DNA of 64,000 nucleotides. It comes from Mustelus asterias. Taxonomy: Eukaryota. The notes under the pieces were generated by a model. The model was not told where the DNA came from, did no database searches, and saw nothing but the letters and a program-made list of their open reading frames with translations. The position numbers and the translations under genes are program-made. Positions 34,695 through 54,182 of the stretch are shown in pieces; position 1 is the first letter of the stretch, and the number at the start of each line of letters is the position of its first letter. The stretch spans positions 17,050,001-17,114,000 of the forward strand of contig NC_135830.1 of NCBI RefSeq assembly GCF_964213995.1, written 5' to 3'.

Positions 34695-35502
34695 GGCGCA
34701 GGTCCTCAATCAATGGTTCCTTGTCCGCAAAACACCTTGCGTTGAATTTCAGATAAAATGTGCAGATCATGAGCCTGCCAATGCAGCCCCATCTGAGTGG
34801 CTTTCCCTCCTAACGTCAATGATTGTCACTGTTGGGGAAATGTGACATTTGGCGCTCAGATTATTCCTGGATAAATCCAATCATTTCCTGATCCCAATCA
34901 CAAAACCCACAGATGTCCCGGGTGAATAACTTAATAAATCAGTATTTTTAATCTTTCTGTGTCAGATGTTTATCTGTCAGGGAACACCTGTTAAATGTGA
35001 TCTAATATCAAAGGCACACTGAGAGTTGTCACATTTTGAAGTTTCTGGACAGAAATAATGACTGATTGAATCAGTACTTTCCCAGTATAAGAGTAATCCC
35101 AGTGGAAACGCAAGTCAATGTGGACTTGGGTGATTACTTATCCCCGGTATAAATAAAGCAGTGACTACTATTATGTTTATGCAGTGGATGCACTCATTAA
35201 TACCCGCAGAGTAAATGAGTGTAAATTATTTATTTCACTTTTAACTTTATTTATAAAGAAAGATTTATCTATAAAAAGGGGGACATTGAGTTCGATCGAA
35301 AGAGGGTGAACCGAGAAAGAGACAGTGTAACTGATAACGTTATTCACCTTTCATGGAAAGAGAAGGAGAGTGAGACCTCTTTTTAGGTCAAACCAAGTAA
35401 ACAAACTCAAATTAAATCAGGACAAAGTAAAAGGGGCAGCTCCCCAAAAAGGAGGGGGAACAGCCCGAACAGAAATCAAAATGCAAAGGAAACTTAAAAA
35501 CA

Positions 35503-38500
35503 TCAAATTAAAATGTGATTATTAGGGTCAATAATGCACCCCAACCCCTGCGGTGCCCAGCGGGCGCGGAAAGCGTCAACCTCGCCCGTGGACACCGCAT
35601 GCTCCCTCTCCAGGGACACCTGGCCGCGAACGTAGCCGCGGTAGAGGGGAAGACAGTCAGGATGGACGGCCCCCTCGATCGCCCGCTGCCTGGACCGGTA
35701 AATGGCGCGTTTCGCCAGGCCCAGGAGCAGGTTCACGAGGAGGTCGCCATCCCGACCCTCCCCTCTCCGCACCGGGTGTCCGTAGATCAGGAGCGTGGGA
35801 CTGAAGTGCAAACAAAACATCAATAAAAGGTTCTTCAGGAAAACATTAAGGGAGTGCAGCCTAAGCCACTCAACATAGACATGGTCCACGGACTCCACAA
35901 GGCCACAGAAAGGGCAGTCTTCGGAGCCCGTGAACCAGTGAATCCTACGGTTGTGCGGAACTGCTGCATGCATCACCCTCCACCCCAGGTCCCCGACGTA
36001 ATTGGGGGAGATCCCTCCGTAGAGGGACCTCCAGCGGGGACCTCCGCCGCCCGGCGGCAACAAGGCCCGCCAAGGTGTATCCGGGCGACAGGCGAGGAGG
36101 CGGTAGTGGAAGGTGTGCAGCAGCAGCCCGCACAGGAAACGCCTCCGCGCGGTAGAAAAAGGCACGGAGGGCATTTCCGCGAGGCGGCTCAGGCTGTGGG
36201 GCACCTCACCCAGGGGAGGGGGCTGAGGCTTTGGGCCAATGTGGAATTCCGCCCGAACAGGGGAACGCTCGGGCGGGATCCCACCGCACGCCTGCGCCGT
36301 CTCAAGTTTGCGTGCAGTTTCGGGGCCGAGCACGACCGTCCTAAGGTCTAGGATGGCTTTGGCCGCGCGCCGGACGGACGTCCCCACGCGCTCAGCCAGC
36401 ACGCGGGGACTCATCCAGCCCGCTCCTCCGCCATCGAGCACGTCCCCGATTCTGGTCACCCCGGCGTCCACAGCCCCCCTCTCCGCCAGCCACCTGAAGT
36501 TATACGGCTGGAGGAGCGGATTCCTGAGCAGCGGCTCTCGCACGAGAGCCGCTACTCCTGACGGGGGAGAGCTGCGTCGCGAGGCGACCTTGTTCCAGAC
36601 AGTGAGGAGGTCCTGGTAAAAGACGGGCAACTCCTGCAGGGTGGTCGAAGCACGCCCCAGTTCGATATGCAGGAGCTGCACGTCATAATTGAGGCCGTGC
36701 CACTGGCGGAAGAAATACGTCGCCATGGCACACCACTGTGGAGGGGGCTCAACGTAAAGGTACCTCTGCAGGGCCTGGAGGCGGAAGGTCGCTATCTGAG
36801 TGCGGAGGCACACCAGACCTTGTCCGCCCTCCTCAAGCGGGAGATACAGGACCGCAGCAGGGACCCAGTGCAGTCGATTGCCCCAGAAGAACCGCTCGAG
36901 GGTTTTCTGGATATCGGTGACAAAGCCAGGGGGAGGGGTCAAAGGGACCAGCCGGTACCACAGCATGGAGGCGACCAGCTGGTTTATGACGCGAGCTCGC
37001 GCCCCGTAGGACAGCACTCGGAGCAGTCCTGTCCAGCGACTCAGGCGGGCGGAGACTTTGGCCTCCAGCTCCCGCCAGTTCGCCGGCCAGGATTCCTCGG
37101 CTGGGCAGAGATGGGCCCCCAAGTAGAGGAGGTCGGTCCTGCTCCAGGTGAAAGGCCTGAGCTCCTCCGGGAGGGGGTCCGTCTCCCAAGGACCGACAAG
37201 GAGTCCGGAGCACTTGGCCCAGTTGATCCTGGCGGAGGACGCGGCGGAGTACACCGCCTGGCATTCTCGCATCCTCCGCAGGTCAGCCGGGTCCGTGAAC
37301 ATGAGGAGCACGTCGTCGGCGTAAGCTGACAGGACCACCCCTACGTCCGGTCCGCGCAGGACCAAACCTGACAACCTCCTCCGCAAGAGGCGCAGGAATG
37401 GCTCCACGCATACGGAATACAGTTGGCCGGACAAGGGGCAGCCCTGCCGTACTCCTCTCCCGAAGCGAAGGGGCGCCGTCAGGGACCCGTTAACCTTAAT
37501 CAGACACTCTGCGGCAGAGTACAGTAATCGGATCCGGGCGACAAAATGCGTCCCGAACCCGAATGCCCGCAGAGTCCCGAGTAAATACTCGTGCTCCACC
37601 CTGTCGAACGCCTTCTCCTGATCTAATGACAAGAAGGCGCCCGACAGACCAGCCCTCTGGGTGTGATGGATTAGGTCCCGGACCAGGTGGAGATTGTCAT
37701 GTATGCAACGGCCCGGGACCGTGTAGGACTGGTCAGGGTGGATCAAGTGGTCCAGCACGGATCCAAGGCGTGAAGCCATAGCCCTGGCAAAGATTTTATA
37801 ATCCGTGCTGAGGAGGGAGACCGGGCGCCAGTTCTTGAGCAGGTGGAGATCCCCCTTCTTGGGCAGCAGGGCAATGACGGCCCTGCGCCACGAAAGGGGC
37901 ATCTCCCCGGTAGCGACGCTCTCCCCCAGGACCCCCGCGTAGTCGCTCCCCAGGACGTCCCAGAACGCCCTGAAGAACTCTACTGTCAGCCCGTCCAGCC
38001 CAGGGGCCTTGCCCCGGCTGAGGCCATTTAGGGCGCCGGTCAGCTCGGCCATGGTGGTAGGGGCCTCGAGCCTGCCGACGCCCTCCGGGCTGACCTGCGG
38101 CAGGTCCTCCCACAGAAGTCTGCGGGCATCCTCGCTGGACGGATCCGGAGAGAAGAGCGAGGTGTAATACTCCCGGGCAATGGCCCGGATGCCCTCCGGA
38201 TCCGAGACGGGGGAACCGTCGTCGGCCAGCAGCGTAAGGAGCTGCTGACGGTTAGCCCGCCCTCTTTCCAGCGAGTAGAAGAAGGGGGAGCCGCGGTCCA
38301 GGTCCACCTGGAACTGGAGCCGCGACCTCACGTACGCGCCGCGAGACCTGGCAAGCTGCAGGTCCCGCAGCGCGTCCTTCTTCTCCCTGTACTCCGAACG
38401 CAGGGCCGGGTCCGCGTCAGGCCGACTGAGACGTGCCTCCAGGTCGAGCACCTCCTTCTCCAACTCCTCGAGCCTGGATTTCCGCCTCTTTGTCGACCCC

Positions 38501-39396
38501 CTCGCGTACCCCTGACAGAAGGTACGGACGTGAGTCTTGCCCACATCCCACCAGAGCCTCAAGGAGGGGAAGCCTCCCCGCTTCCTTCTCCAGCCGGCCC
38601 AGAATCGACGGAACGAGTCCAGGAAGCGCTCGTCCTCCAGCAGCGTGTTGTTAAAGTGCCAGTACGCGGACCCCCGCCGGATGCGAGACGGCGCAAAGTC
38701 CGCCCACACCAGGCTGTGGTCCGTGCTCGACACCAGCCGCATGGAGACCGAGGACACGCCGGACACGTGCGCCTTCGAAATGTAAAGGCGGTCGAGCCTG
38801 GACGCTCCGACTCCAGGCCTCACGAAAGTGAAGGCGCTGGAGCCAGGATGGAGATGTCTCCAGACGTCCACCAAGTCGTGAGACCCGATCAGGTCCCGCA
38901 ACTTCACCACCGCCGGAGTGCGCAGCCAGGGGCCGGTGCGGTCCCGTGCCTCGAGGATGCAGTTGAAATCTCCCCCGAGGATAATGCATTCGCCCCCCGC
39001 GATGGTGTCGATGTGAGCGGACACTTTCTCGTAGAAAGTCGTTTGCTGCGGTCCAGCGGTCGGGGCGTAGACATTCAGCAAGTGAATGACCACGCCCCCC
39101 TCACGGACCGTCAAGTGCAGCAACCGGCCTGGCACCGGCTCCTTGACCCCCAAGATCTCCGGCTTATAACGCGGGGCCAACAAGATAGCCACCCCGCAAG
39201 AAGCGAGCGTGAGGTGGCTCATGTAGACCCCCCCTCGCCACTCCAGGAGCCATTGGGCTTCGTCTCCCGGAACGGTGTGGGTTTCCTGCAGGAAACACAC
39301 CGCATACTTCCCGTCACGGAGGACCGAGAAGTTCTGGAACCTGCGGTGTGGCCCACTGCTGCCGTTGATGTTGAGGCTGGCTATGGTCACCTTCAT
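35503..39396 (-). CDS. Tx1 ORF2: APE endonuclease, reverse transcriptase and C-terminal zinc-binding region (1297 aa)
   Basis: SLNING, LQETH, GGDFN, SRLDRLY, TDHSLV, APGLDGL, NWRPVSLL, DQEKAFD, GVRQGCPLS, YADD, CPFCG..ESVDH. Confidence 0.95.
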   Translation of the reverse strand: MKVTIASLNINGSSGPHRRFQNFSVLRDGKYAVCFLQETHTVPGDEAQWLLEWRGGVYMSHLTLASCGVAILLAPRYKPEILGVKEPVPGRLLHLTVREGGVVIHLLNVYAPTAGPQQTTFYEKVSAHIDTIAGGECIILGGDFNCILEARDRTGPWLRTPAVVKLRDLIGSHDLVDVWRHLHPGSSAFTFVRPGVGASRLDRLYISKAHVSGVSSVSMRLVSSTDHSLVWADFAPSRIRRGSAYWHFNNTLLEDERFLDSFRRFWAGWRRKRGGFPSLRLWWDVGKTHVRTFCQGYARGSTKRRKSRLEELEKEVLDLEARLSRPDADPALRSEYREKKDALRDLQLARSRGAYVRSRLQFQVDLDRGSPFFYSLERGRANRQQLLTLLADDGSPVSDPEGIRAIAREYYTSLFSPDPSSEDARRLLWEDLPQVSPEGVGRLEAPTTMAELTGALNGLSRGKAPGLDGLTVEFFRAFWDVLGSDYAGVLGESVATGEMPLSWRRAVIALLPKKGDLHLLKNWRPVSLLSTDYKIFARAMASRLGSVLDHLIHPDQSYTVPGRCIHDNLHLVRDLIHHTQRAGLSGAFLSLDQEKAFDRVEHEYLLGTLRAFGFGTHFVARIRLLYSAAECLIKVNGSLTAPLRFGRGVRQGCPLSGQLYSVCVEPFLRLLRRRLSGLVLRGPDVGVVLSAYADDVLLMFTDPADLRRMRECQAVYSAASSARINWAKCSGLLVGPWETDPLPEELRPFTWSRTDLLYLGAHLCPAEESWPANWRELEAKVSARLSRWTGLLRVLSYGARARVINQLVASMLWYRLVPLTPPPGFVTDIQKTLERFFWGNRLHWVPAAVLYLPLEEGGQGLVCLRTQIATFRLQALQRYLYVEPPPQWCAMATYFFRQWHGLNYDVQLLHIELGRASTTLQELPVFYQDLLTVWNKVASRRSSPPSGVAALVREPLLRNPLLQPYNFRWLAERGAVDAGVTRIGDVLDGGGAGWMSPRVLAERVGTSVRRAAKAILDLRTVVLGPETARKLETAQACGGIPPERSPVRAEFHIGPKPQPPPLGEVPHSLSRLAEMPSVPFSTARRRFLCGLLLHTFHYRLLACRPDTPWRALLPPGGGGPRWRSLYGGISPNYVGDLGWRVMHAAVPHNRRIHWFTGSEDCPFCGLVESVDHVYVEWLRLHSLNVFLKNLLLMFCLHFSPTLLIYGHPVRRGEGRDGDLLVNLLLGLAKRAIYRSRQRAIEGAVHPDCLPLYRGYVRGQVSLEREHAVSTGEVDAFRARWAPQGLGCIIDPNNHILI

Positions 39397-39424
39397 GTCA
39401 GCAGCTTTGTGCCACCGTCACCAC

Positions 39425-41517
39425 TTAACTAGGTGTGTGGGGGGGCGCTGGCGCAATGCACGCCAGTCCACCCCCCACCTTTTCGAGCCTGTGGAGGAAC
39501 CGCAGTACCCAGCGCCGCTCTATTTTCTCCAGGCCCGCGGAGGCATGCGAGCATGCCTTCACGGACCGGACGAGCCGCGCCAGGTCCGGCCAGTGGCCGA
39601 GGGCTAGCCGGATTATGTCGGAGCGACCGGAATGGTTACGGATAAAGACCCTGAGGTCCTTGGAGGGGATGAGGGACGACTCGGTGGGGGGCACGAGGGA
39701 GTCCCCCGCCTCGCTCTGGGCAGACTCTGAAAGTGTCCCCGTGCCCTCCACCGAGCCGCTGACCTCCTCAGGGCGGTCGCCCCTCGACTCCGAGTCCCCC
39801 GCCGCAGGACGTACGGCGGGCGGCACGGAGCCACCAACTAGCCCTAGCCCCTCCCCGATCCCACCCCCAGGATCGGTGGAGGAGGGGTTCCCCCCGGGCT
39901 CACCTTTCCCGGATTGCGGGCCCCCGTGCGACGGCGGCCCAGCCGCCCCCCCCGCCCCAGACGCTTGGACACCCCCCAGGTCCGGTGTATCCTTCGGACT
40001 GAGGTTGGGGATGTCCAGCGTCCAAGGTCGGGACGGAGAGGACGAGTGGATCGTCTCTTCGCCGCCGCCGCACGAGGACGTGAACATTGGAGTGTCGCCC
40101 CAGTCCCCCGACAGACTGAAGAAGAACTCCGGGTTGTAACCGGCCGGGTGGAACGGAACCGTGGGGGCCCCGCTGCCACCCGGCCCCGGAGACTCCTCGC
40201 CGGGGGACTGAGGCAACACATGCTTCGATTTACAGGGTGCCTTGCCCCCTTTTTTCAGGGGACAAGGCACAAAGACAGGTGGGGGCACGGCAGGAGATGA
40301 CTCACAAGGGGGGAGGGGCACGCAGACCTCGAACTCTACGGTGCCCGAGGGGCCCCGCCTCTTTTTGTTAACCTGCCCTCGGGCAGGCGAGGCCCCTCGC
40401 CCTCCGCCCCTCTTCGCCTTGCCGCGCCCCCCCTGCTCTCCCGTCACTTCCCCCCGAGGTGGCGGCGTCGCCAGTTTTGCCGGCTCGGGGTCGCTTACCC
40501 CCCCATGCTCGGGCCCATGATCCCGGGTGCCGGACCCAGCACTAGGCCCAGGAGAGCCCACGGGCCCGGCAGATGGTGGTGGTGGGGGGGGGCGCAGGTG
40601 GAGACTGAGGCGGTCCCCGAGCCGGCTGCCGGGGTGGTTGGGGTGTCTTTCCTGGGGGCCGGGGTTCCGGTACCCCCCTTCTTTTTCGTGGGTCCCTTCT
40701 GGGCCTTTTGGCCGCGCGGGGGCTCCGCTCCCCCCCCGCCGGCAGCTGAGGTGGCAGCTGCTGCCGGCGTGGCCTCCCCTCGTGGGGGGGCAGATGGTAC
40801 TCGCTTGGGGGGAGAGGGGGCTGCGGTGCCAGCTGCGGCCGCCTTGGGTTGGTGGTCGGCGGCCTTGGAGACAGGGCAGTTTTTCCGCACGTGCCCCGCC
40901 TCCTTACAGGCATGGCACCGCACACCGTCCGCGGACCAAAAGACCCGGTACGTGGTCCCCTCGTGGGGGACATTGAACCCTCCCTCCAGTTCCTCCTCCC
41001 GGGCCAGGCGGACAAAAACCTGGCGCCGGAAGGAGTATATATGGCGGAGGGAGGGGTCCCGAAGGCCGAGCGGGATCGGCTGCACCCCGGACCTGACCTC
41101 CCCCAGTAGATAGAGGTGGGGGAGGAGGAGCTCACTCGGTAGGAAGGGCGGGACGTTCGATATTACTATCTTGTGGGCGGTGGCCTCCAAAGGGTCCACC
41201 GCCAGGAACGTCCCGCCCACCGTGAGCCCCTTTTCCAGGGCGAGGCGAACCGCCCGCTCGGCCTTCAGGAAGAATACGGCCCGGCCGTACATCTTTGAGG
41301 CCGCGACAATGGCTGAGGGGCCGACAACCCCAGCCATTGCCTTGACGCAGGCCTCAATAGACATGTCGGGGTGGGCGTAGCACTTCACCCCGAGCTGCCG
41401 CGTGATTAGGGAGAATGGTGGCAGGGCCTTGGGAGCGGCGGGGGCTCTGGCAGCCGCCACGCCCGCATAGGTGGGCCGAGAAGGCCCTGCCACCGGCGAC
41501 GCTGGTGATGTCGCCAT
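39425..41517 (-). CDS. Tx1 ORF1 (RNA-binding region, CCHC knuckle, long low-complexity tail), split by one frameshift near 40500-40600
   Basis: ORF 40495..41517 (IVAASKMYGRAVFFL, ISNVPPF, CHACKEAGHVRKNC) overlaps ORF 39425..40561. A G homopolymer lies at about 40583-40592. Confidence 0.8.
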
Positions 41518-41914
41518 GGTATCAAGGGAAGTGCTACGCCCATCCCGAGACTGCCCAGACGTACGGCAGGGCGTATGTGGGATGGGGACGATAAGGCAGG
41601 GTGGGGTAGGCGGGGAGGGGTGTAGGTGCTCTCTCCCCGGAGTGAGAGAGGGAGAGAGGAGGTTGGAGGAGCAGGAGGGAGACGAGGCACAAGGCCGGTG
41701 CCCCAGTCAGGAGGGAAAAAGGGGAGGGGGTGCCGGTCCCGGGGGCAGCAGCAGTGGGTAGGGGAATTAGGAAAAGGTCTTCACCCCCCCCACTGCAGAT
41801 GGAAAAGAGACAGTCCAAACGCCTTCGTTCGCCCCCCCCCCCCCCCTTCTCCTCCAGTCACTCCCTGTCCTCTCTTCCTCCCTCCCCCCGGGGAGAGCGC
41901 ACCCTCCAGAGGCC

Positions 41915-42290
41915 AGATGGCAGGCAAGCAGGCAGTCAGGCAGTCCAGACGGCAGGCAGGCCAGACGGCAAGCAGGCAGGCAGGTAGTCCAGACGGCAGG
42001 CAGGCAGGCAGTCCAGACGGCAGGCAGGCAGGTAGGTAAGCAGGCCAGACGGCAGGCAGGCAGGTAAGCAGGCCAAACGACAGGCAGGCAGGTAAGCAGG
42101 CCAGACGGCAGGCAGGCAGGTAAGCAGGCCAGACGGAAGGCAGGCAGGTAAGCAGGCCAGACGGCAGGCAGGCAGGTAAGCAGGCCAGACGGCAGGCAGG
42201 CAGGTAAGCAGGCCAGACGGCAGGCAGGCAGGTAAGCAGGCCAGACGGCAGGCAGGCAGGCAACAGGCAGGCCGGGCAAGGCAGGCAGCA
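41915..42290. repeat. 28-bp tandem repeat (GGCAGGCAGGCAGGTAAGCAGGCCAGAC)n in the Tx1 5'UTR
   Basis: GTAAG recurs with 28-bp period from about 42036 to 42232. Confidence 0.9.
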
Positions 42291-42479
42291 GCTCACCTCC
42301 CTCCTTCCTCCCCGCAGGGAGCCAAGAACAAACAAACAAAACAAAAACAAACAGAACCGGGCGTCTTCTTAAACAAACCCACCCCGGAAACAAAGTGCAG
42401 GCGCTGCCCCAGGGGAGGCACGTTTCAGGCCGTCTGAAGCTCAATTCTCACTCAGACCGAGAGCAGCAGCAGCTTTGCT

Positions 42480-42895: not shown

Positions 42896-42950
42896 GAAGA
42901 TGGAGTTTCAGAGAGAGTCAAAGTTTCTCCTGTCGTCCACATCTGTGAGT
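42890..42950 (+). other. Inferred first exon and 5' splice donor (CCACATCT|GTGAGT) of the ZNF gene at 53.4 kb
   Basis: Follows the promoter. The sequence resuming at 50543 is homologous to that after ACATCT at 9687-9810, upstream of the paralogous ZNF. Confidence 0.6.
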
Positions 42951-45900
42951 GGGAAAGATTGGACTGTCCAGCCAGTCCACCATATTGGCCGTTCGCTTTG
43001 CGTGTTGGCCAGTATAGTGTGCTCCAGGCAGGGGGCGGGCAGAGGATAAGGAGTTCAAGGCGGGCTTAATGCGCGCCTTGCGGTGAGCTTTTGGAAATGT
43101 GGCCGCTGGGAGGAACGCCTTGGTCGGCGTGAAGTTTCTGTTTCAAGTGCTTGGGTTCGTGACTTGTGCAAGAACTTTTTGTTTCGGCTGGGGCTTGTTG
43201 AATGCTGCTCTCGCTGGGATTCCTGTGCCTTGAAAGGCGTGGCCCGGGTGGATGCAATCTCGGAAGACCCAAGCCAGGGAGGAGCCATTTGGGAACTATG
43301 GTTTCGGAAGGTTCAGCCGCGGAAGGTGTGACCCCAGACGGTGCAGCCCCAGTGGGTGTGATTTTGGAAGTTCTGGCCCGGAGTGGTGGACTTTGGAGGA
43401 CTGTAGTTGAGCGTTGTCGACTTCGGACGGTGGAATGTTGATGGGCGAAGCTCTGGAAGGCGATGCCTCCGAAATGTTTCACAATTGTTCATGGATTGTT
43501 TGTTATTGTAATATGTGGTTTTCCTGTTATGATAGTTGGTGGTTTGTTCCGGCCCCCGTCTATTTTCTTGCGTTATTTGTGGCCTGGGGGGCATCCCCCC
43601 CTGGATAGAGTCACCCCCGGGGGGTGTGACATCCACTTGGGGAAAGTTCTGGGTGGTGAAGCCCCGGACATAGTAACACCAGAGGGATTTTTATTCTCCG
43701 GGAGAAAAATTGGGAAGGCAGGCCCGAACTGAGTACCCTGGAGAGACTCTCCCACCGCCCCGGCTGAAATTCCGGAAGGCAGTCCGGATTGAGTAGGCGG
43801 GGTGGTTTCCCCATTTCCCCCCTCTGGCTGAACATCCGTAAGGTGTAACCCCCGGATATGAGTACCACTGGAGGGTTGCATCCCCCGGCAGGTGGACAAA
43901 CCCAGGGGACGGTGCCCTTATGCTTCAGTGTTTATTTTTTTGTTGTGTACAGTTGTAGTGTTGTTAATGTTTGTAGATTTGTAGATTATGATTTGTAAAT
44001 GGAGGTGTATTTTGAGGGCAATGCCCTGGAAAACTGTAATTGACGATGAACCCTTCCGAAATGGAAGGTAGTAATTGATAAATGGATGGTGTTAGCCATC
44101 GGTAATGTATTTTTCATGAATTGTTTGTTATTGTAATATGTGGTTTTCCTGTTATGATAGTTGGTGGTTTGTTCCGGCCCCCGTCTATTTTCTTGCGTTA
44201 TTTGTGGCCTGGGGGGCATCCCCCCCTGGATAAAGTCACCCCCGGGGGGTGTGACATCCACTTGGGGAAAGTTCTGGGTGGTGAAGCCCCGGTCATAGTA
44301 ACACCAGAGGGATTTTTATTCTCCGGGAGAAAAATTGGGAAGGCAGGCCCGAACTGAGTACCCTGGAGAGACTCTCCCACCGCCCCGGCTGAAATTCCGG
44401 AAGGGATTCCGGATTGAGTAGGCGGGGTGGTTTCCCCCATTTCCCCCCTCCGGCTGAACATCCGTAAGGTGTAACCCCCGGATATGAGTACCACTGGAGG
44501 GTTGCATCCCCCGGCAGGTGGACAAACCCAGGGGACGGTGCCCTTATGCTTCAGTGTTTATTTTTTGTGTACAGTTGTAGTGTGTTAATGTTTGTAGATT
44601 TGTAGATTATGATTTGTAAATGGAGGTGTATTTTGAGGGCAATGCCCTGGAAAACTGTAATTGACGATGAACCCTTCCGAAATGGAAGGTAGTAACTGAT
44701 AAATGGATGGCGTTAGCCATTGGTAATGTATTTTTTTCACATTTGTTCTTTGTGTATTTGTAATTGTTTTGTATTAACGTATTTGTAATAAACAAAAAGA
44801 AATCCACATCTGTGAGTGGGAAAGATTGGACTGTCCAGCCAGTCCACCATATTGGCCGTTCGCTTTGCGTGTTGGCCAGTATAGTGTGCTCCAGGCAGGG
44901 GGCGGGCAGAGGATAAGGAGTTCAAGGCGGGCTTAATGCGCGCCTTGCGGTGAGCTTTTGGAAATGTGGCCGCTGGGAGGAACGCCTTGGTCGGCGTGAA
45001 GTTTCTGTTTCAAGTGCTTGGGTTCGTGACTTGTGCAAGAACTTTTTGTTTCGGCTGGGGCTTGTTGAATGCTGCTCTCGCTGGGATTCCTGTGCCTTGA
45101 AAGGCGTGGCCCGGGTGGATGCAATCTCGGAAGACCCAAGCCAGGGAGGAGCCATTTGGGAACTATGGTTTCGGAAGGTTCAGCCGCGGAAGGTGTGACC
45201 CCAGACGGTGCAGCCCCAGTGGGTGTGATTTTGGAAGTTCTGGCCCGGAGTGGTGGACTTTGGAGGACTGTAGTTGAGCGTTGTCGACTTCGGACGGTGG
45301 AATGTTGATGGGCGAAGCTCTGGAAGGCGATGCCTCCGAAATGTTTCACAATTGTATGGTTGTTCATGGATTGTTTGTTATTGTAATATGTGGTTTTCCT
45401 GTTATGATAGTTGGTGGTTCCGGCCCCCGTCTATTTTCTTGCGTTATTGTGGCCTGGGGGGCATCCCCCCCTGGATGGAGTCACCCCCGGGGGGTGTGAC
45501 ATCCACTTGGGAAAATGCTCTGGGTGGTGAAGCCCCGGACATAGTAACACCAGAGGGATTTTTATTCTCCGGGAGAAAAATTGGGAAGGCAGGCCCGAAC
45601 TGAGTACCCTGGAGAGACTCTCCCACCGCCCCGGCTGAAATTCCGGAAGGCAGTCCGGATTGAGTAGGCGGGGTGGTTTCCCCATTTCCCCCCTCCGGCT
45701 GAACATCCGTAAGGTGTAACCCCCGGATATGAGTACCACTGGAGGGTTGCATCCCCCGGCAGGTGGACAAACCCAGGGGACGGTGCCCTTATGCTTCAGT
45801 GTTTATTTTTTTGTTGTGTACAGTTGTAGTGTTGTTAATGTTTGTAGATTTGTAGATTATGATTTGTAAATGGAGGTGTATTTTGAGGGCAATGCCCTGG

Positions 45901-48900
45901 AAAACTGTAATTGACGATGAACCCTTCCGAAATGGAAGGTAGTAATTGATAAATGGATGGTGTCAGCCATCGGTAATGTATTTTTCATGGATTGTTTGTT
46001 ATTGTAATATGTGGTTTTCCTGTTATGATAGTTGGTGGTTTGTTCCGGCCCCCGTCTATTTTTTTGCGTTATTTGTGGCCTGGGGGGCATCCCCCCCTGG
46101 AAAAAGTCACCCCCGGGGGGTGTGACATCCACTTGGGGAAAGTTCTGGGTGGTGAAGCCCCGGACATAGTAACACCAGAGGGATTTTTATTCTCCGGGAG
46201 AAAAATTGGGAAGGCAGGCCCGAACTGAGTACCCTGGAGAGACTCTCCCACCGCCCCGGCTGAAATTCCGGAAGGAATTCCGGATTGAGTAGGCGGGGTG
46301 GTTTCCCCCATTTCCCCCCTCCGGCTGAACATCCGTAAGGTGTAACCCCCGGATATGAGTACCACTGGAGGGTTGCATCCCCCGGCAGGTGGACAAACCC
46401 AGGGGACGGTGCCCTTATGCTTCAGTGTTTATTTTTTTGTTGTGTACAGTTGTAGTGTTGTTAATGTTTGTAGATTTGTAGATTATGATTTGTAAATGGA
46501 GGTGTATTTTGAGGGCAATGCCCTGGAAAACTGTAATTGACGATGAACCCTTCCGAAATGGAAGGTAGTAACTGATAAATGGATGGCGTTAGCCATTGGT
46601 AATGTATTTTTTTTCACATTTGTTCTTTGTGTATTTGTAATTGTTTTGTATTAACGTATTTGTAATAAACAAAAAGAAAGCCAAAAAAAAAAAAAAAAAA
46701 AGATGGAGTTTCAGAGAGAGTCAAAGTTTCTCCTGTCGTCCACATCTGTGAGTGGGAAAGATTGGATTGTCCAGCCAGTCCGCCATATTGGCCGTTCGCT
46801 TTGCGTGTTGGCCAGTATAGTGTGCTCCAGGCAGGGGGCGGGCAGAGGATAAGGAGTTCAAGGCGGGCTTAATGCGCGCCTTGCGGTGAGCTTTTGGAAA
46901 TGTGGCCGCTGGGAGGAACGCCTTGGTCGGCGTGAAGTTTCTGTTTCAAGTGCTTGGGTTCGTGACTTGTGCAAGAACTTTTTGTTTCGGCTGGGGCTTG
47001 TTGAATGCTGCTCTCGCTGGGATTCCTGTGCCTTGAAAGGTGTGGCCCGGGTGGATGCAGTCTCGGAAGACCCAAGCCAGGGAGGAGCCATTTTGGAACT
47101 ATGGTTTCGGAAGGTTCAGCCGCGGAAGGTGTGACCCCAGACGGTGCAGCCCCAGTGGGTGTGATTTTGGAAGATCTGGCCCGGAGTGGTGGACTTTGGA
47201 GGACTGTAGTTGAGCGTTGTCGACTTCGGACGGTGGAATGTTGATGGGCGAAGCTCTGGAAGGCGATGCCTCCGAAATGTTTCACAATTGTATGGTTGTT
47301 CATGGATTGTTTGTTATTGTAATATGTGGTTTTCCTGTTATGATAGTTGGTGGTTTGTTCCGGCCCCCGTCTATTTTCTTGCGTTATTTGTGGCCTGGGG
47401 GGCATCCCCCCCTGGATGGAGTCACCCCCGGGGGGTGTGACATCCACTTGGGGAAAGTTCTGGGTGGTGAAGCCCCGGACATAGTAACACCAGAGGGATT
47501 TTTATTCTCCGGGAGAAAAATTGGGAAGGCAGGCCCGAACTGAGTACCCTGGAGAGACTCTCCCACCGCCCCGGCTGAAATTCCGGAAGGCAGTCCGGAT
47601 TGAGTAGGTGGGGTGGTTTCCCCCATTTCCCCCCTCCGGCTGAACATCCGTAAGGTGTAACCCCCGGATATGAGTACCACTGGAGGGTTGCATCCCCCGG
47701 CAGGTGGACAAACCCAGGGGACGGTGCCCTTATGCTTCAGTGTTTATTTTTTTGTTGTGTACAGTTGTAGTGTTGTTAATGTTTGTAGATTTGTAGATTA
47801 TGATTTGTAAATGGAGGTGTATTTTGAGGGCAATGCCCTGGAAAACTGTAATTGACGATGAACCCTTCCGAAATGGAAGGTAGTAATTGATAAATGGATG
47901 GTGTTAGCCATCGGTAATGTATTTTTCATGAATTGTTTGTTATTGTAATATGTGGTTTTCCTGTTATGATAGTTGGTGGTTTGTTCCGGCCCCCGTCTAT
48001 TTTCTTGCGTTATTTGTGGCCTGGGGGGGCATCCCCCCCTGGATAAAGTCACCCCCGGGGGGTGTGACATCCACTTGGGGAAAGTTCTGGGTGGTGAAGC
48101 CCCGGACATAGTAACACCAGAGGGATTTTTATTCTCCGGGAGAAAAATTGGGAAGGCAGGCCCGAACTGAGTACCCTGGAGAGACTCTCCCACCGCCCCG
48201 GCTGAAATTCCGGAAGGGATTCCGGATTGAGTAGGCGGGGTGGTTTCCCCCATTTCCCCCCTCCGACTGAACATCCGTAAGGTGTAACCCCCGGATATGA
48301 GTACCACTGGAGGGTTGCATCCCCCGGCAGGTGGACAAACCCAGGGGACGGTGCCCTTATGCTTCAGTGTTTATTTTTTGTTGTGTACAGTTGTAGTGTT
48401 GTGTTCATGTTTGTAGATTTGTAGATTATAATTTGTAAATAGAGGTGTATTTTGAGGGCAGGGCCCTGGAAAACTGTAATTGACGATGAACCCTTCCGAA
48501 ATGGAAGGTAGTAACTGATAAATGGATGGCGTTAGCCATTGGTAATGTATTTTTTTCACATTTGTTCTTTGTGTATTTGTAATTGTTTTGTATTAACGTA
48601 TTTGTAATAAACAAAAAGAAAGCCACATCTGTGAGTGGGAAAGATTGGATTGTCCAGCCAGTCCACCATATTGGCCGTTCGCTTTGCGTGTTGGCCAGTA
48701 TAGTGTGCTCCAGGCAGGGGGCGGGCAGAGGATAAGGAGTTCAAGGCGGGCTTAATGCGCGCCTTGCGGTGAGCTTTTGGAAATGTGGCCGCTGGGAGGA
48801 ACGCCTTGGTCGGCGTGAAGTTTCTGTTTCAAGTGCTTGGGTTCGTGACTTGTGCAAGAACTTTTTGTTTCGGCTGGGGCTTGTTGAATGCTGCTCTCGC

Positions 48901-50500
48901 TGGGATTCCTGTGCCTTGAAAGGCGTGGCCCGGGTGGATGCAATCTCGGAAGACCCAAGCCAGGGAGGAGCCATTTGGGAACTATGGTTTCGGAAGGTTC
49001 AGCCGCGGAAGGTGTGACCCCAGACGGTGCAGCCCCAGTGGGTGTGATTTTGGAAGTTCTGGCCCGGAGTGGTGGACTTTGGAGGACTGTAGTTGAGCGT
49101 TGTCGACTTCGGACGGTGGAATGTTGATGGGCGAAGCTCTGGAAGGCGATGCCTCCGAAATGTTTCACAATTGTATGGTTGTTCATGGATTGTTTGTTAT
49201 TGTAATATGTGGTTTTCCTGTTATGATAGTTGGTGGTTCCGGCCCCCGTCTATTTTCTTGCGTTATTGTGGCCTGGGGGGCATCCCCCCCTGGATAAAGT
49301 CACCCCCGGGGGGTGTGACATCCACTTGGGGAAAGTTCTGGGTGGTGAAGCCCCGGACATAGTAACACCAGAGGGATTTTTATTCTCCGGGAGAAAGATT
49401 GGGAAGGCAGGCCCGAACTGAGTACCCTGGAGAGACTCTCCCACCGCCCCGGCTGAAATTCCGGAAGGCAGTCCGGATTGAGTAGGCGGGGTGGTTTCCC
49501 CATTTCCCCCCTCCGGCTGAACATCCGTAAGGTGTAACCCCCGGATATGAGTACCACTGGAGGGTTGCATCCCCCGGCAGGTGGACAAACCCAGGGGACG
49601 GTGCCCTTATGCTTCAGTGTTTATTTTTTTGTTGTGTACAGTTGTAGTGTTGTTAATGTTTGTAGATTTGTAGATTATGATTTGTAAATGGAGGTGTATT
49701 TTGAGGGCAATGCCCTGGAAAACTGTAATTGACGATGAACCCTTCCGAAATGGAAGGTAGTAATTGATAAATGGATGGTGTTAGCCATCGGTAATGTATT
49801 TTTCATGGATTGTTTGTTATTGTAATATGTGGTTTTCCTGTTATGACAGTTGGTGGTTTGTTCCGGCCCCCGTCTATTTTTTTGCGTTATTTGTGGCCTG
49901 GGGGGCATCCCCCCCTGGAAAAAGTCACCCCCGGGGGGTGTGACATCCACTTGGGGAAAGTTCTGGGTGGTGAAGCCCCGGACATAGTAACACCAGAGGG
50001 ATTTTTATTCTCCGGGAGAAAAATTGGGAAGGCAGGCCCGAACTGAGTACCCTGGAGAGACTCTCCCACCGCCCCGGCTGAAATTCCGGAAGGGATTCCG
50101 GATTGAGTAGGCGGGGTGGTTTCCCCCATTTCCCCCCTCCGGCTGAACATCCGTAAGGTGTAACCCCCGGATATGAGTACCACTGGAGGGTTGCATCCCC
50201 CGGCAGGTGGACAAACCCAGGGGACGGTGCCCTTATGCTTCAGTGTTTATTTTTTGTTGTGTACAGTTGTAGTGTTGTGTTAATGTTTGTAGATTTGTAG
50301 ATTATGATTTGTAAATGGAGGTGTATTTTGAGGGCAATGCCCTGGAAAACTGTAATTGACGATGAACCCTTCCGAAATGGAAGGTAGTAACTGATAAATG
50401 GATGGCGTTAGCCATTGGTAATGTATTTTTTTCACATTTGTTCTTTGTGTATTTGTAATTGTTTTGTATTAACGTATTTGTAATAAACAAAAAGAAAGCC
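42951..50500 (+). mobile_element. Four tandem copies of a ~1.85-kb non-autonomous retroelement: 42951-44802, 44818-46701, 46754-48622, 48637-50498
   Basis: Each unit is a ~535-bp head, two ~625-bp internal repeats and an AT-rich tail ending AATAAACAAAAAGAAA(GCC). Units are separated by copies of CCACATCTGTGAGT. Unit 2 has a poly(A) tail. Confidence 0.8.
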
Positions 50501-50512
50501 ACATCTGTGAGT

Positions 50513-50530
50513 TTGACCTAAAAGAGGCCA
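50513..50530 (+). mobile_element. 18-bp stub of the Tx1 3' terminus
   Basis: TTGACCTAAAAGAGGCCA matches the Tx1 end TTTGACCTAAAAAGAGG. Flanked by ACATCTGTGAGT at 50501-50512 and 50531-50542. Confidence 0.75.
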
Positions 50531-51711
50531 ACATCTGTGAGTTTCTTTTCTCAATCTGGGGGAAATTGGGGACTTGCAGCAACTGAAGGGAAAGGAAGTG
50601 AATCCAGGGAGGGTGCAAACTCTGGAAAGGTTGGCCCAGGACTCTCTCTCTCTCTTAAAGACATTGATATCGAAACATCGAAGGAACTCCATCAGGAACA
50701 TCCTCCCTGCATCTATCCTGCCTCGACCAGTTAGAATTTTATCAGTCTCTTTGAGATTCCCCCCTCATTCATCTGAACTCCAATGAAAACAATCCTAACC
50801 TAGTCAATCTCTCCTCCTACATCAGTCCCGCGATTCCCTGAATCAGCCTGGTAAACATCCTTTGCTCCCTCAGCTTGACACATTTATTTGTCTGTCGAAA
50901 AGGATGGTTATTTTCCTCATGTTCACATTAAAGGGCAGCTTTCCCCAGGAGATGGCTGACATTTAAGCGTACAGTAACTTAATATAGGACAGAGATATGT
51001 CTAGTGTTATTCTATGTACCCAGATTAGATACATTCTTTATGCTTCTGTAATAAAATACATTTATTATTATTTCTTGCATTGTAGTATAATGCTGTAGCG
51101 ATGTTATACACTTCCAGTCATAAAGTCATTACAGCACAGAAGGAATCCATTTGGTAACTTGATTTCATGCTGACTCTCTGTATAACATTCCAGTCCCATT
51201 CCCACTCGATATCCCCATTCTCCTGAAAGGTTATTTCCTTCAACTGCCTATCCACTTTCATTTGTAAATAGAATCCATAGATATGGATGGAGATTTACAA
51301 CTTTTTGGGAATGAAATAGGAAAGAATGTTCCAGAGAAACTAGAATTGTCTGCTCTGAATTTCGATCCTATACTGACTGTGATGACTTTTGCAAGCTCAT
51401 TTCACAGGATTTTGAACGAGGAATCACAGGCAAAACTCTCAACCGTCACATCTAGAAAGAGTCATATTCCTTGGAATCTGAATATCTTGTAATGTGGAAC
51501 TGTAGCTACGTTATATATTTCCAGACGTCTCTTCCCTCAGAGGGTTGTTAGTCTTTTGGATTTCTCTTCTACAGGGACCAGTGGAGGCTGAGGATCATTG
51601 AATATATTCCAGTTAGACAGATCTTTGACTGACAAGGGTGTCAAGGGTTATAGGGAACAGACAAGAAGATGGAGCAAAAGCTAAGATGTGAGGGGATTTC
51701 TTCACTCAAGG

Positions 51712-52609: not shown

Positions 52610-53423
52610 AAAGCTTTGGAATTCTCAACCCCCGAGGACAGTGAAGCCTCAGTCATCAACTATTTTCAAGAGAGAGATTGATTGGTTTCTAGATGTTGAA
52701 AATATCAAGGGATATGGGTTTAGTGTGGGGAGAATGATGCTGAGGTAGATGAACGAATTATCTCATTGAATAGTTTAAAAGGCTCGATGAGCCAAATGGC
52801 CGACTGCAACTCCTCGTTGTCATGGTCTCTGTGTCCAGGACAGGAAGCAGTGAGCATGGATCTGTCAATCAGCCTCAATCAGCACCTTCAGGAGAATTGG
52901 GAGGGTGAATATTAGATACAGCAGAGTTTGAATGGAGGGAGAGTGTGTGGGATGGAGATTTACAGCTTTTGAGGAATGGGAGAGGAAAGAATGTTCCATA
53001 GAAACTAGAATTGTCTTTTCTGAATTTCTATCCTGTCCTGACAATGATGACTTTTGTAAACTTGTTTTACAGGATATTGAAAGAGGAATCACAGGCCGAA
53101 ATCTCAAACGTCACGTCGAGATCTGACATAGTCATATTCCTTGGGAGCTGAATATCATCGTCCTTTGAATCTAGAAAGAGAAATTGTTGTCCAGTCTGTT
53201 GATTTGAAAAGATTTCAAACATCAGTGTGACTGGAAAAGCACCAACACACTGCCACACTCGAGTGAGGGTGTTCCAGTGCACGGACTAAAGAGCTTTAAC
53301 CAGTTACACAGCCTGAATAACTATCACACCATTCACAGCAGGGAGAGACTGTACCCGTGTTCTGTGTGTGGACGAGGCTTCAACTGATTGTCCACCCAAG
53401 AGAGAGGCAAGGACACCTGCACC

Positions 53424-54182
53424 ATGGAGAAACCATGGAAATGTGCGGACTGTGGGAAGAGATACAGATACCCAACTGAGCTGGAAGCTCATCGGCGCAG
53501 CCACACTGGGGAGAGACCATTCACGTGCTCTCAGTGTGGGAAGGGATTCACTCAGTCATTCAACCTGCAGAGACACCAGCGAGCTCACACTGGGGAGAGG
53601 CCGTTCACCTGCTCTCAGTGTGGGGAGGGATTCACTTCTTCATCCTACCTGCGGAGGCACCAGCGAGTTCACACTGGGGAGAGGCCGTTCACCTGCTCTC
53701 AGTGTGGGGAGGGATTCACTTCTTCATCCTACCTGCGGAGGCACCAGCGAGTTCACACTGGGGAGAGGCCGTTCACCTGCTCTCAGTGTGGGAAGGGATT
53801 CACTCGGTCATCCAGCCTGCGGACACACGAGCGAGTTCATACTGGGGAGAGGCCGTTCACGTGTTCTCAGTGTGGGGAGGGATTCACTCGGTCATCCAGC
53901 CTGCGGGCACACGAGCGAGTTCACACTGGGGAGAGGCCATTCACCTGCTCTCAGTGTGGGAAGGGATTCTGTGATTCATCCCGCCTGCTGAGACACCAGC
54001 AAGTTCACACTGGGGAGAGGCCGTTCACCTGCTCTCAATGTGAGAAGAGATTCACTCGATTATCCAGCCTGCTGAGACACCAGCGAGTTCACACTGGAGA
54101 GAAGCCGTTCACCTGCTCTGTGTGTGAGAAGAGATTCAGTCTTTCATCCAGCCTGCTGAGACACCAACGAGTTCACGAATGA
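53424..54182 (+). CDS. C2H2 zinc-finger protein, 9 fingers (MEKPWKC start), no KRAB domain seen
   Basis: ORF 53388..54182 with first ATG at 53424 and TGERP linkers. Acceptor TTTTACAG at about 53072. Confidence 0.8.

Follow-up and report, generated by a model that had tools for sequence, protein, structure and literature searches.

The window, that is, the whole 64,000-nucleotide stretch of the Mustelus asterias genome analysed here (contig NC_135830.1, positions 17,050,001 to 17,114,000), carries a full-length Tx1 element on the minus strand and, on the plus strand, an array of non-coding units followed by a short copy of a Tx1 3' tip, hereafter the stub (Table 1). Array and stub lie at a splice-donor-like site at the end of the putative first exon of a C2H2 zinc-finger (ZNF) gene. 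Contigs aligned to an array-less paralog gave no interpretable splice joint, and therefore exon and donor are treated as putative throughout.

Table 1. Features of the locus in window coordinates (aa, amino acids; A5 and A4, tip variants with five and four A)
Feature	Position	Strand	Remarks
Full-length Tx1, young TCT-targeting subfamily	35376..42431	-	5' end approximate
3' tip of the window's Tx1, A5 variant, then TCT	35376..35392	-	
ORF2, APE-type endonuclease and reverse transcriptase	35503..39417	-	1304 aa stop to stop
Target copy before the array, end of putative first ZNF exon	42936..42950	+	exon status from donor consensus only
Array of four ~1.86-kb non-coding units	42951..50497	+	units 0.5–1.1% apart
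Three target bases, ~19-A run and repeat of exon end	46680..46753	+	between units 2 and 3
Left target copy	50498..50512	+	15 bp, ends in GT splice-donor consensus
Stub, Tx1 3' tip, A4 variant	50513..50527	+	15 bp; element end set by target-site duplications
Right target copy	50528..50542	+	15 bp; this form also follows long Tx1 copies and occupies empty paralogous sites
C2H2 zinc-finger coding stretch (putative host gene)	53388..54182	+	downstream of the site

The ORF2 of the Tx1 element encodes the Pfam domain Exo_endo_phos followed by RVT_1 and is 48% identical over 100% of its length to the ORF2 of Xenopus Tx1, and on this best named match and these domains we class the element as a non-LTR retrotransposon of the Tx1 clade. 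By identity, the nearest ORF2 fragments come from cartilaginous fishes (64–70%), and the ORF upstream of ORF2 had no usable match in Atlas. The subfamily is young and intact, with an ORF2 identity of 98–99% at loci L436 and L437. The window's copy has ZNF exon sequence on its 5' side (~42431) and an unrelated TCT site on its 3' side (35376), and therefore no target-site duplication (TSD); it sits in the head-to-head partner gene, and array-less paralogs share its 5' part.

The original prediction described the stub as an 18-bp insert within a 12-bp TSD. The string that it quoted is in the window, although it starts at 50501 instead of 50499, its 12-mer lying at 50501–50512 and 50531–50542. The TSDs of dispersed truncated copies, however, place the last base of Tx1 at 35376, one base past the end assumed earlier, and therefore the final three bases of the supposed insert are part of the right target copy. 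On this reading there is a 15-bp tip inside a 15-bp duplication, the left and right copies of which mismatch at 2 of 15 positions; one more T at the edge of the stub fits either side, so that an alternative scoring gives 14 bp in 16 bp. The identity of the insert with the Tx1 3' tip, apart from one A, is borne out. A 16/17-base tip pattern matches the window twice (35376–35392, minus strand, and 50512–50527, plus strand) and the shuffled window in none of 100 trials, and the likeness is beyond chance.

TSDs, counted by hand, are mostly 13–16 bp long among dispersed Tx1 copies. Those of at least 11 bp could be made out in 4 of 30 A5 copies (about 14–15 bp), 9 of 30 copies with the TA4 tip (11–16 bp), 13 of 25 copies of a further Tx1 subfamily (11–18 bp) and 8 of 30 sampled units (11–16 bp), while the remaining sampled copies had no TSD at the junction or reached the end of the fetched DNA. 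As expected of a truncated insertion, the stub has an intact element 3' end at its downstream junction, and its 15-bp duplication with two mismatches compares with the 13–16 bp of the family.

The ZNF site has been hit repeatedly by several Tx1 subfamilies and by a non-coding repeat: long Tx1 copies, pre-tRNA–tip chimeras and unit ends are all found there. Among 149 distinct junction contexts fetched, a script sorted the 5' structures into 33 classes, excluding those running off the DNA, and some of these classes are later deletions of one insertion. The original prediction held that the Tx1 family of the window cuts the site occupied by the units. Its relatives do end at this site: the A4 tip followed by the ZNF site has 108 matches, and the TA4 tip has 242 matches, with 178 TA4-pattern matches continuing into the first six bases of the site. 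For the window's own subfamily it is otherwise. Among its best 30 copies (189 matches in all), found with a query that included 7 flank bases, all 30 are followed by TCT or TCC and none lies directly at the ZNF donor site; in 25 of the 30 the upstream TCT part of the exon follows, a figure inflated by the flank bases of the query and by duplicated copies. This subfamily inserts at TCT positions about 10–55 bp upstream of the site, and one full-length copy (L437) stands 11 bases upstream of it, directly before units. The stub therefore does not connect the array to the element at 35376, as had been claimed. On a wider scale, most copies lack GTGAG in their 3' flank, which on the original prediction's own terms weighs against it; 32 of the 1400 exact genome matches of the A5 tip do continue into the ZNF donor site, fewer than the >20% of flanks in one repeat type by which Tx1 elements have been called target-specific (PMC4494074).

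Instead, the first target bases depend on the subfamily. Flanks start with CC in 30/30 TA4 copies versus 5/30 A5 copies (Fisher p 5e-12), and within A5 they start with ACA or ATA in 7/9 copies of one variant versus 0/19 of another (p 3e-5), with conservation dropping off past base 4. The endonuclease of the window's subfamily differs from that of CCA-type copies at 16 of 243 residues, and therefore enzyme change and RNA-tail pairing are inseparable here.

The units of the array duplicate the same target as the left copy beside the stub. The array had no match in Rfam, and comparison of the units with the window's Tx1 (best E 0.13) and with 399 homologous proteins gave nothing significant. Unit ends number 99 at the ZNF site against 214 in all (counted with slightly different patterns), many of them tandem or duplicated; elsewhere, units have 5' truncations and TSDs of ~15 bp, and at L427 they stand in tandem with a full-length TA4 element. 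The shared site, the truncations, the TSDs and this tandem support the view that the units may be mobilised by proteins of the Tx1 clan. Of the features expected of a partner of the window's Tx1, the units have the shared target and TSD length (11–16 bp) but not the 3' tail, and their last 7 bases and the second unit target match a different Tx1 subfamily (79 matches). Because the units lack significant homology to the window's Tx1 and their end points elsewhere, the stub does not reveal the partner of the units, contrary to what had been suggested. All 30 full-length unit starts are preceded by a target-like copy, also at loci with a different site as 3' flank, which suggests a 5' carry-over from a unit source resident in a ZNF gene.

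Between units 2 and 3, the three target bases, the ~19-A run and the repeat of the exon end come 16–20 bases past a polyadenylation-like hexamer, and this segment looks like a polyadenylated transcript of exon and two units that was reinserted into its own exon, or else a duplication with an A-run. Elsewhere in the genome, the spacers inside one unit array vary among target variants of different paralogs (L326–L330, L333), and at the same loci arrays with the exon of the stub lineage can end in the standard downstream flank. Units have also inserted into other units, in the initial ~40 bases, or at other exon positions (L167, L171, L176, L179, L181, L182, L189). A Tx1 fragment lies at most 1.5 kb away in 5 of 30 sampled unit loci (L133, L135, L138, L145, L150), suggesting shared local hotspots. 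At L133, a unit and a Tx1 tip that might have inserted together, back to back, proved to reflect a ~130-bp duplication around the unit that continues into an older antisense Tx1. At L021, a diverged stretch resembling the 5' part of a unit continues into a Tx1 3' part and may be an older non-autonomous element of chimeric origin.

The stub had been taken for a fresh event tied to the array, and its distribution among ZNF paralogs argues otherwise. It is inherited in at least 29 of them, 21 of which are array-less, although some loci may be allelic contigs. Sorted by the exon type of the stub lineage, 29 loci comprise 21 array-less stubs and 8 that start an array; sorted by the short downstream flank of this lineage, 24 loci comprise 8 array-less stubs, 8 with array and stub, and 8 with a ~110-bp A4 Tx1 end. 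Neither the 24 nor the 29 loci included an empty allele of this lineage, and empty target sites exist in other ZNF paralogs. The exact left junction has 11 genome matches, 7 of them without an array. The array is missing from near-identical paralogs that keep the stub, for example L438 and L439, which align with the window both before and after the array and are 99.5–99.8% identical to it downstream of the stub. The flanks of stub paralogs differ by 3.4–3.8% on average (maximum 6.5–10.8%), and a distance of ~3.5% compared with 0.5–1.1% between the four units of the array indicates that the stub predates the array, which entered the left target copy of the stub.

Tip-only inserts recur. The loci fetched include eight others, 11–25 bp long with TSDs of 13–16 bp. 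L366, L371, L380 and L419 each lie at a unique site, and L076, L375, L382 and L391 lie at the ZNF site; these loci were fetched by tip patterns, and the eight therefore yield no rate. At L375, on another contig, a unit, the target, a 15-bp tip of the TA4 variant and the target again reproduce the geometry of the window. At the ZNF site, tRNA sequences are also found with a Tx1 tip of 12–16 bases fused behind them. These chimeras involve tRNA-Arg with leader and trailer in 28 contexts (L105–L131, L336–L363), tRNA-Gly (L116, L187, L360, L362, L378) and tRNA-Phe-like sequences, named by eye (L243–L245); their trailers end in T, and several still fold as tRNA (ARAGORN). Of 54 matches to the Arg trailer pattern, 52 are on ZNF-cluster contigs, and L335, on a different contig, has the same tRNA-Arg and trailer without a Tx1 tip. 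Two sequences of ~100 bases are likewise fused to the TA4 tip at the site (L104/L256 and L118/L123), the one at L104 having no Rfam match. The recurrence of tip-only inserts and tRNA–tip fusions indicates that an early stop, or a jump after the tip, is a recurrent product. On a larger scale, L251, L260, L261 and L262 have a Tx1 3' end at the site and a 5' junction 1.7–5 kb inside another copy of the gene farther upstream, and are kilobase-scale duplications; at G000:C89:2431515-2433788, Tx1 3' ends stand in tandem with a spacing of about 132 bases.

Taken together, we hypothesize, with a probability of roughly 0.65, that the stub is a 15-bp Tx1 3' tip left by an aborted target-primed insertion and subsequently copied with the ZNF gene. 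The eight other tip-only inserts with TSDs support such an origin, and the left junction of the stub lies 15 bases past the nick, the usual TSD length of the family. Around what is directly observed, namely the identity and register of the tip, its distribution among paralogs, its order relative to the array and the repeated use of the site by Tx1 and units, the following course is plausible. A CCA-targeting sister subfamily would have inserted into an ancestral ZNF paralog at its putative first splice donor, where the endonuclease may have nicked the start of the site; reverse transcription would have halted at the U-run of the tip, with about 15 bases copied, and the cDNA may have joined the upstream strand via a microhomology of 1–3 T. 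Gene and stub would then have been copied to at least 29 loci before the units, presumably riding on Tx1-clan proteins, entered the left copy of the stub. Thus, of the abortive, truncated insertion originally proposed, the Tx1 tip and the recurrence of tip-only inserts with TSDs hold up, but the link to the window's subfamily does not.

Alternatively, the stub might be the leftover of a longer A4 Tx1 insertion, produced by deletion or by recombination between ZNF paralogs, in which case the apparent TSD would be two different exon-1 donors joined. We consider this possible but distinctly less probable than an aborted insertion. Dispersed copies seldom have the A4 tip (8 matches, against 1400 for A5), which is also found in 64 longer copies, only on ZNF-cluster contigs, some of which share their 5' junction with A5 copies; therefore, A4 may mark one old junction, the ancestor of the stub. 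The downstream flanks of stubs and long A4 copies rank with the nearest matches of one another and fall into one shallow, intermixed clade of a tree whose noise does not allow events to be ordered (82 rows and 593 columns, with all but three of the divergent head-to-head partners left out). Further, long copies often have the exon-1 site kilobases upstream, and the difference between left and right target copies, like the lack of an empty allele at the 24 and 29 loci, would fit this reading. However, a deletion would have had to stop exactly at the canonical 15-base position, the independent stubs at L375 and L391 share the same geometry, and a pre-tRNA-Arg chimera has A4 together with its own 14-bp TSD, so that an A4 RNA source or gene conversion could explain the sharing.

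The original prediction in its literal form, with the stub derived from the subfamily of the element at 35376 and the same subfamily mobilising the units, is improbable, even though the two tips differ by a single A, the subfamily is young and intact and the units are also young, and it inserts into the same exon, as L437 illustrates. The absence of its 30 best copies from the site itself, with 25 at the upstream TCT part, speaks against this, as do the greater age of the stub compared with the array, the endonuclease differences from CCA-type copies, and the last 7 bases of the units, which fit another subfamily. Least credible by far is a chance likeness or ancestral intron sequence. The motif does occur in many ZNF paralogs, which had been named as grounds for doubt if no TSD went with it, but it is always accompanied by a second target copy; shuffled windows yielded no match (0/100), and the empty paralogous sites without the motif refute this explanation.

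The closest known system, as far as the available parts of its description go, is that of Tx1-Mar and SINEU in crocodilians, for which the target is a Mariner DNA transposon (PMC4494074). As here, one preferred multicopy target serves both the Tx1-clade elements and their non-autonomous partners, the favoured position within it varies between families, and 5' extensions come from the donor locus, for example in SINEU, with small-RNA heads added by template switch. By contrast, the target in the shark is the putative first exon and donor of a C2H2-ZNF gene family, and the partner is a 1.9-kb unit without an Rfam match that occurs in tandem arrays. Xenopus Tx1L in Tx1D, Keno in U2 snRNA and Kibi/Koshi in microsatellites (PMC4494074, PMC1950540) belong to the same clade, with an APE endonuclease, a reverse transcriptase and a multicopy target. 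They are described as stringent, whereas most copies here are dispersed and show a 3–4-base preference plus a hotspot. According to PMC4494074, it is mainly the endonuclease that decides where an element inserts. In the account of L1 'snap-velcro' priming consulted, the last four primer bases pair with the template (PMC3649969), and snRNA–L1 chimeric retrocopies are summarised in PMC4494074; the roughly four fixed first target bases and the small RNAs fused to the element 3' end are similar here. Unlike L1 as described there, the elements here have no poly(A) tail and their fixed bases vary by subfamily, and unlike the snRNA–L1 chimeras, the fused RNAs are pre-tRNAs joined to only 12–16 element bases.

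To judge from these sequences, a Tx1 clan and its non-coding rider converge on the putative first exon of ZNF genes genome-wide. The target is a protein-coding multigene family, whereas the known Tx1 targets, in the parts of the literature covered, are RNA genes, microsatellites and transposons. In the literature searched, which lay outside Repbase Reports, subscription papers and supplements, we found no published account of a Tx1 that prefers ZNF exons, and the text of PMC10547256 that was available has no mention of Tx1 or shark. Tentatively, the Tx1 clan may use the C2H2-ZNF first exon as both a multicopy landing pad and a promoter. Full-length copies directly behind the host exon would be co-transcribed with it, the read-through tail of a subfamily might, besides the endonuclease, set the first bases of the next target, and stubs, pre-tRNA–tip chimeras, unit arrays and kilobase duplications might all remodel ZNF genes. 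Sister subfamilies that are about 90–97% identical and have different fixed first bases offer a natural test of endonuclease versus RNA tail. ZNF clusters are thought to counter transposons, and therefore elements landing at the first splice donor of ZNF genes could change these genes directly. In itself, the stub is a small, old, inherited fossil, and its significance lies in the clan preference that it marks.
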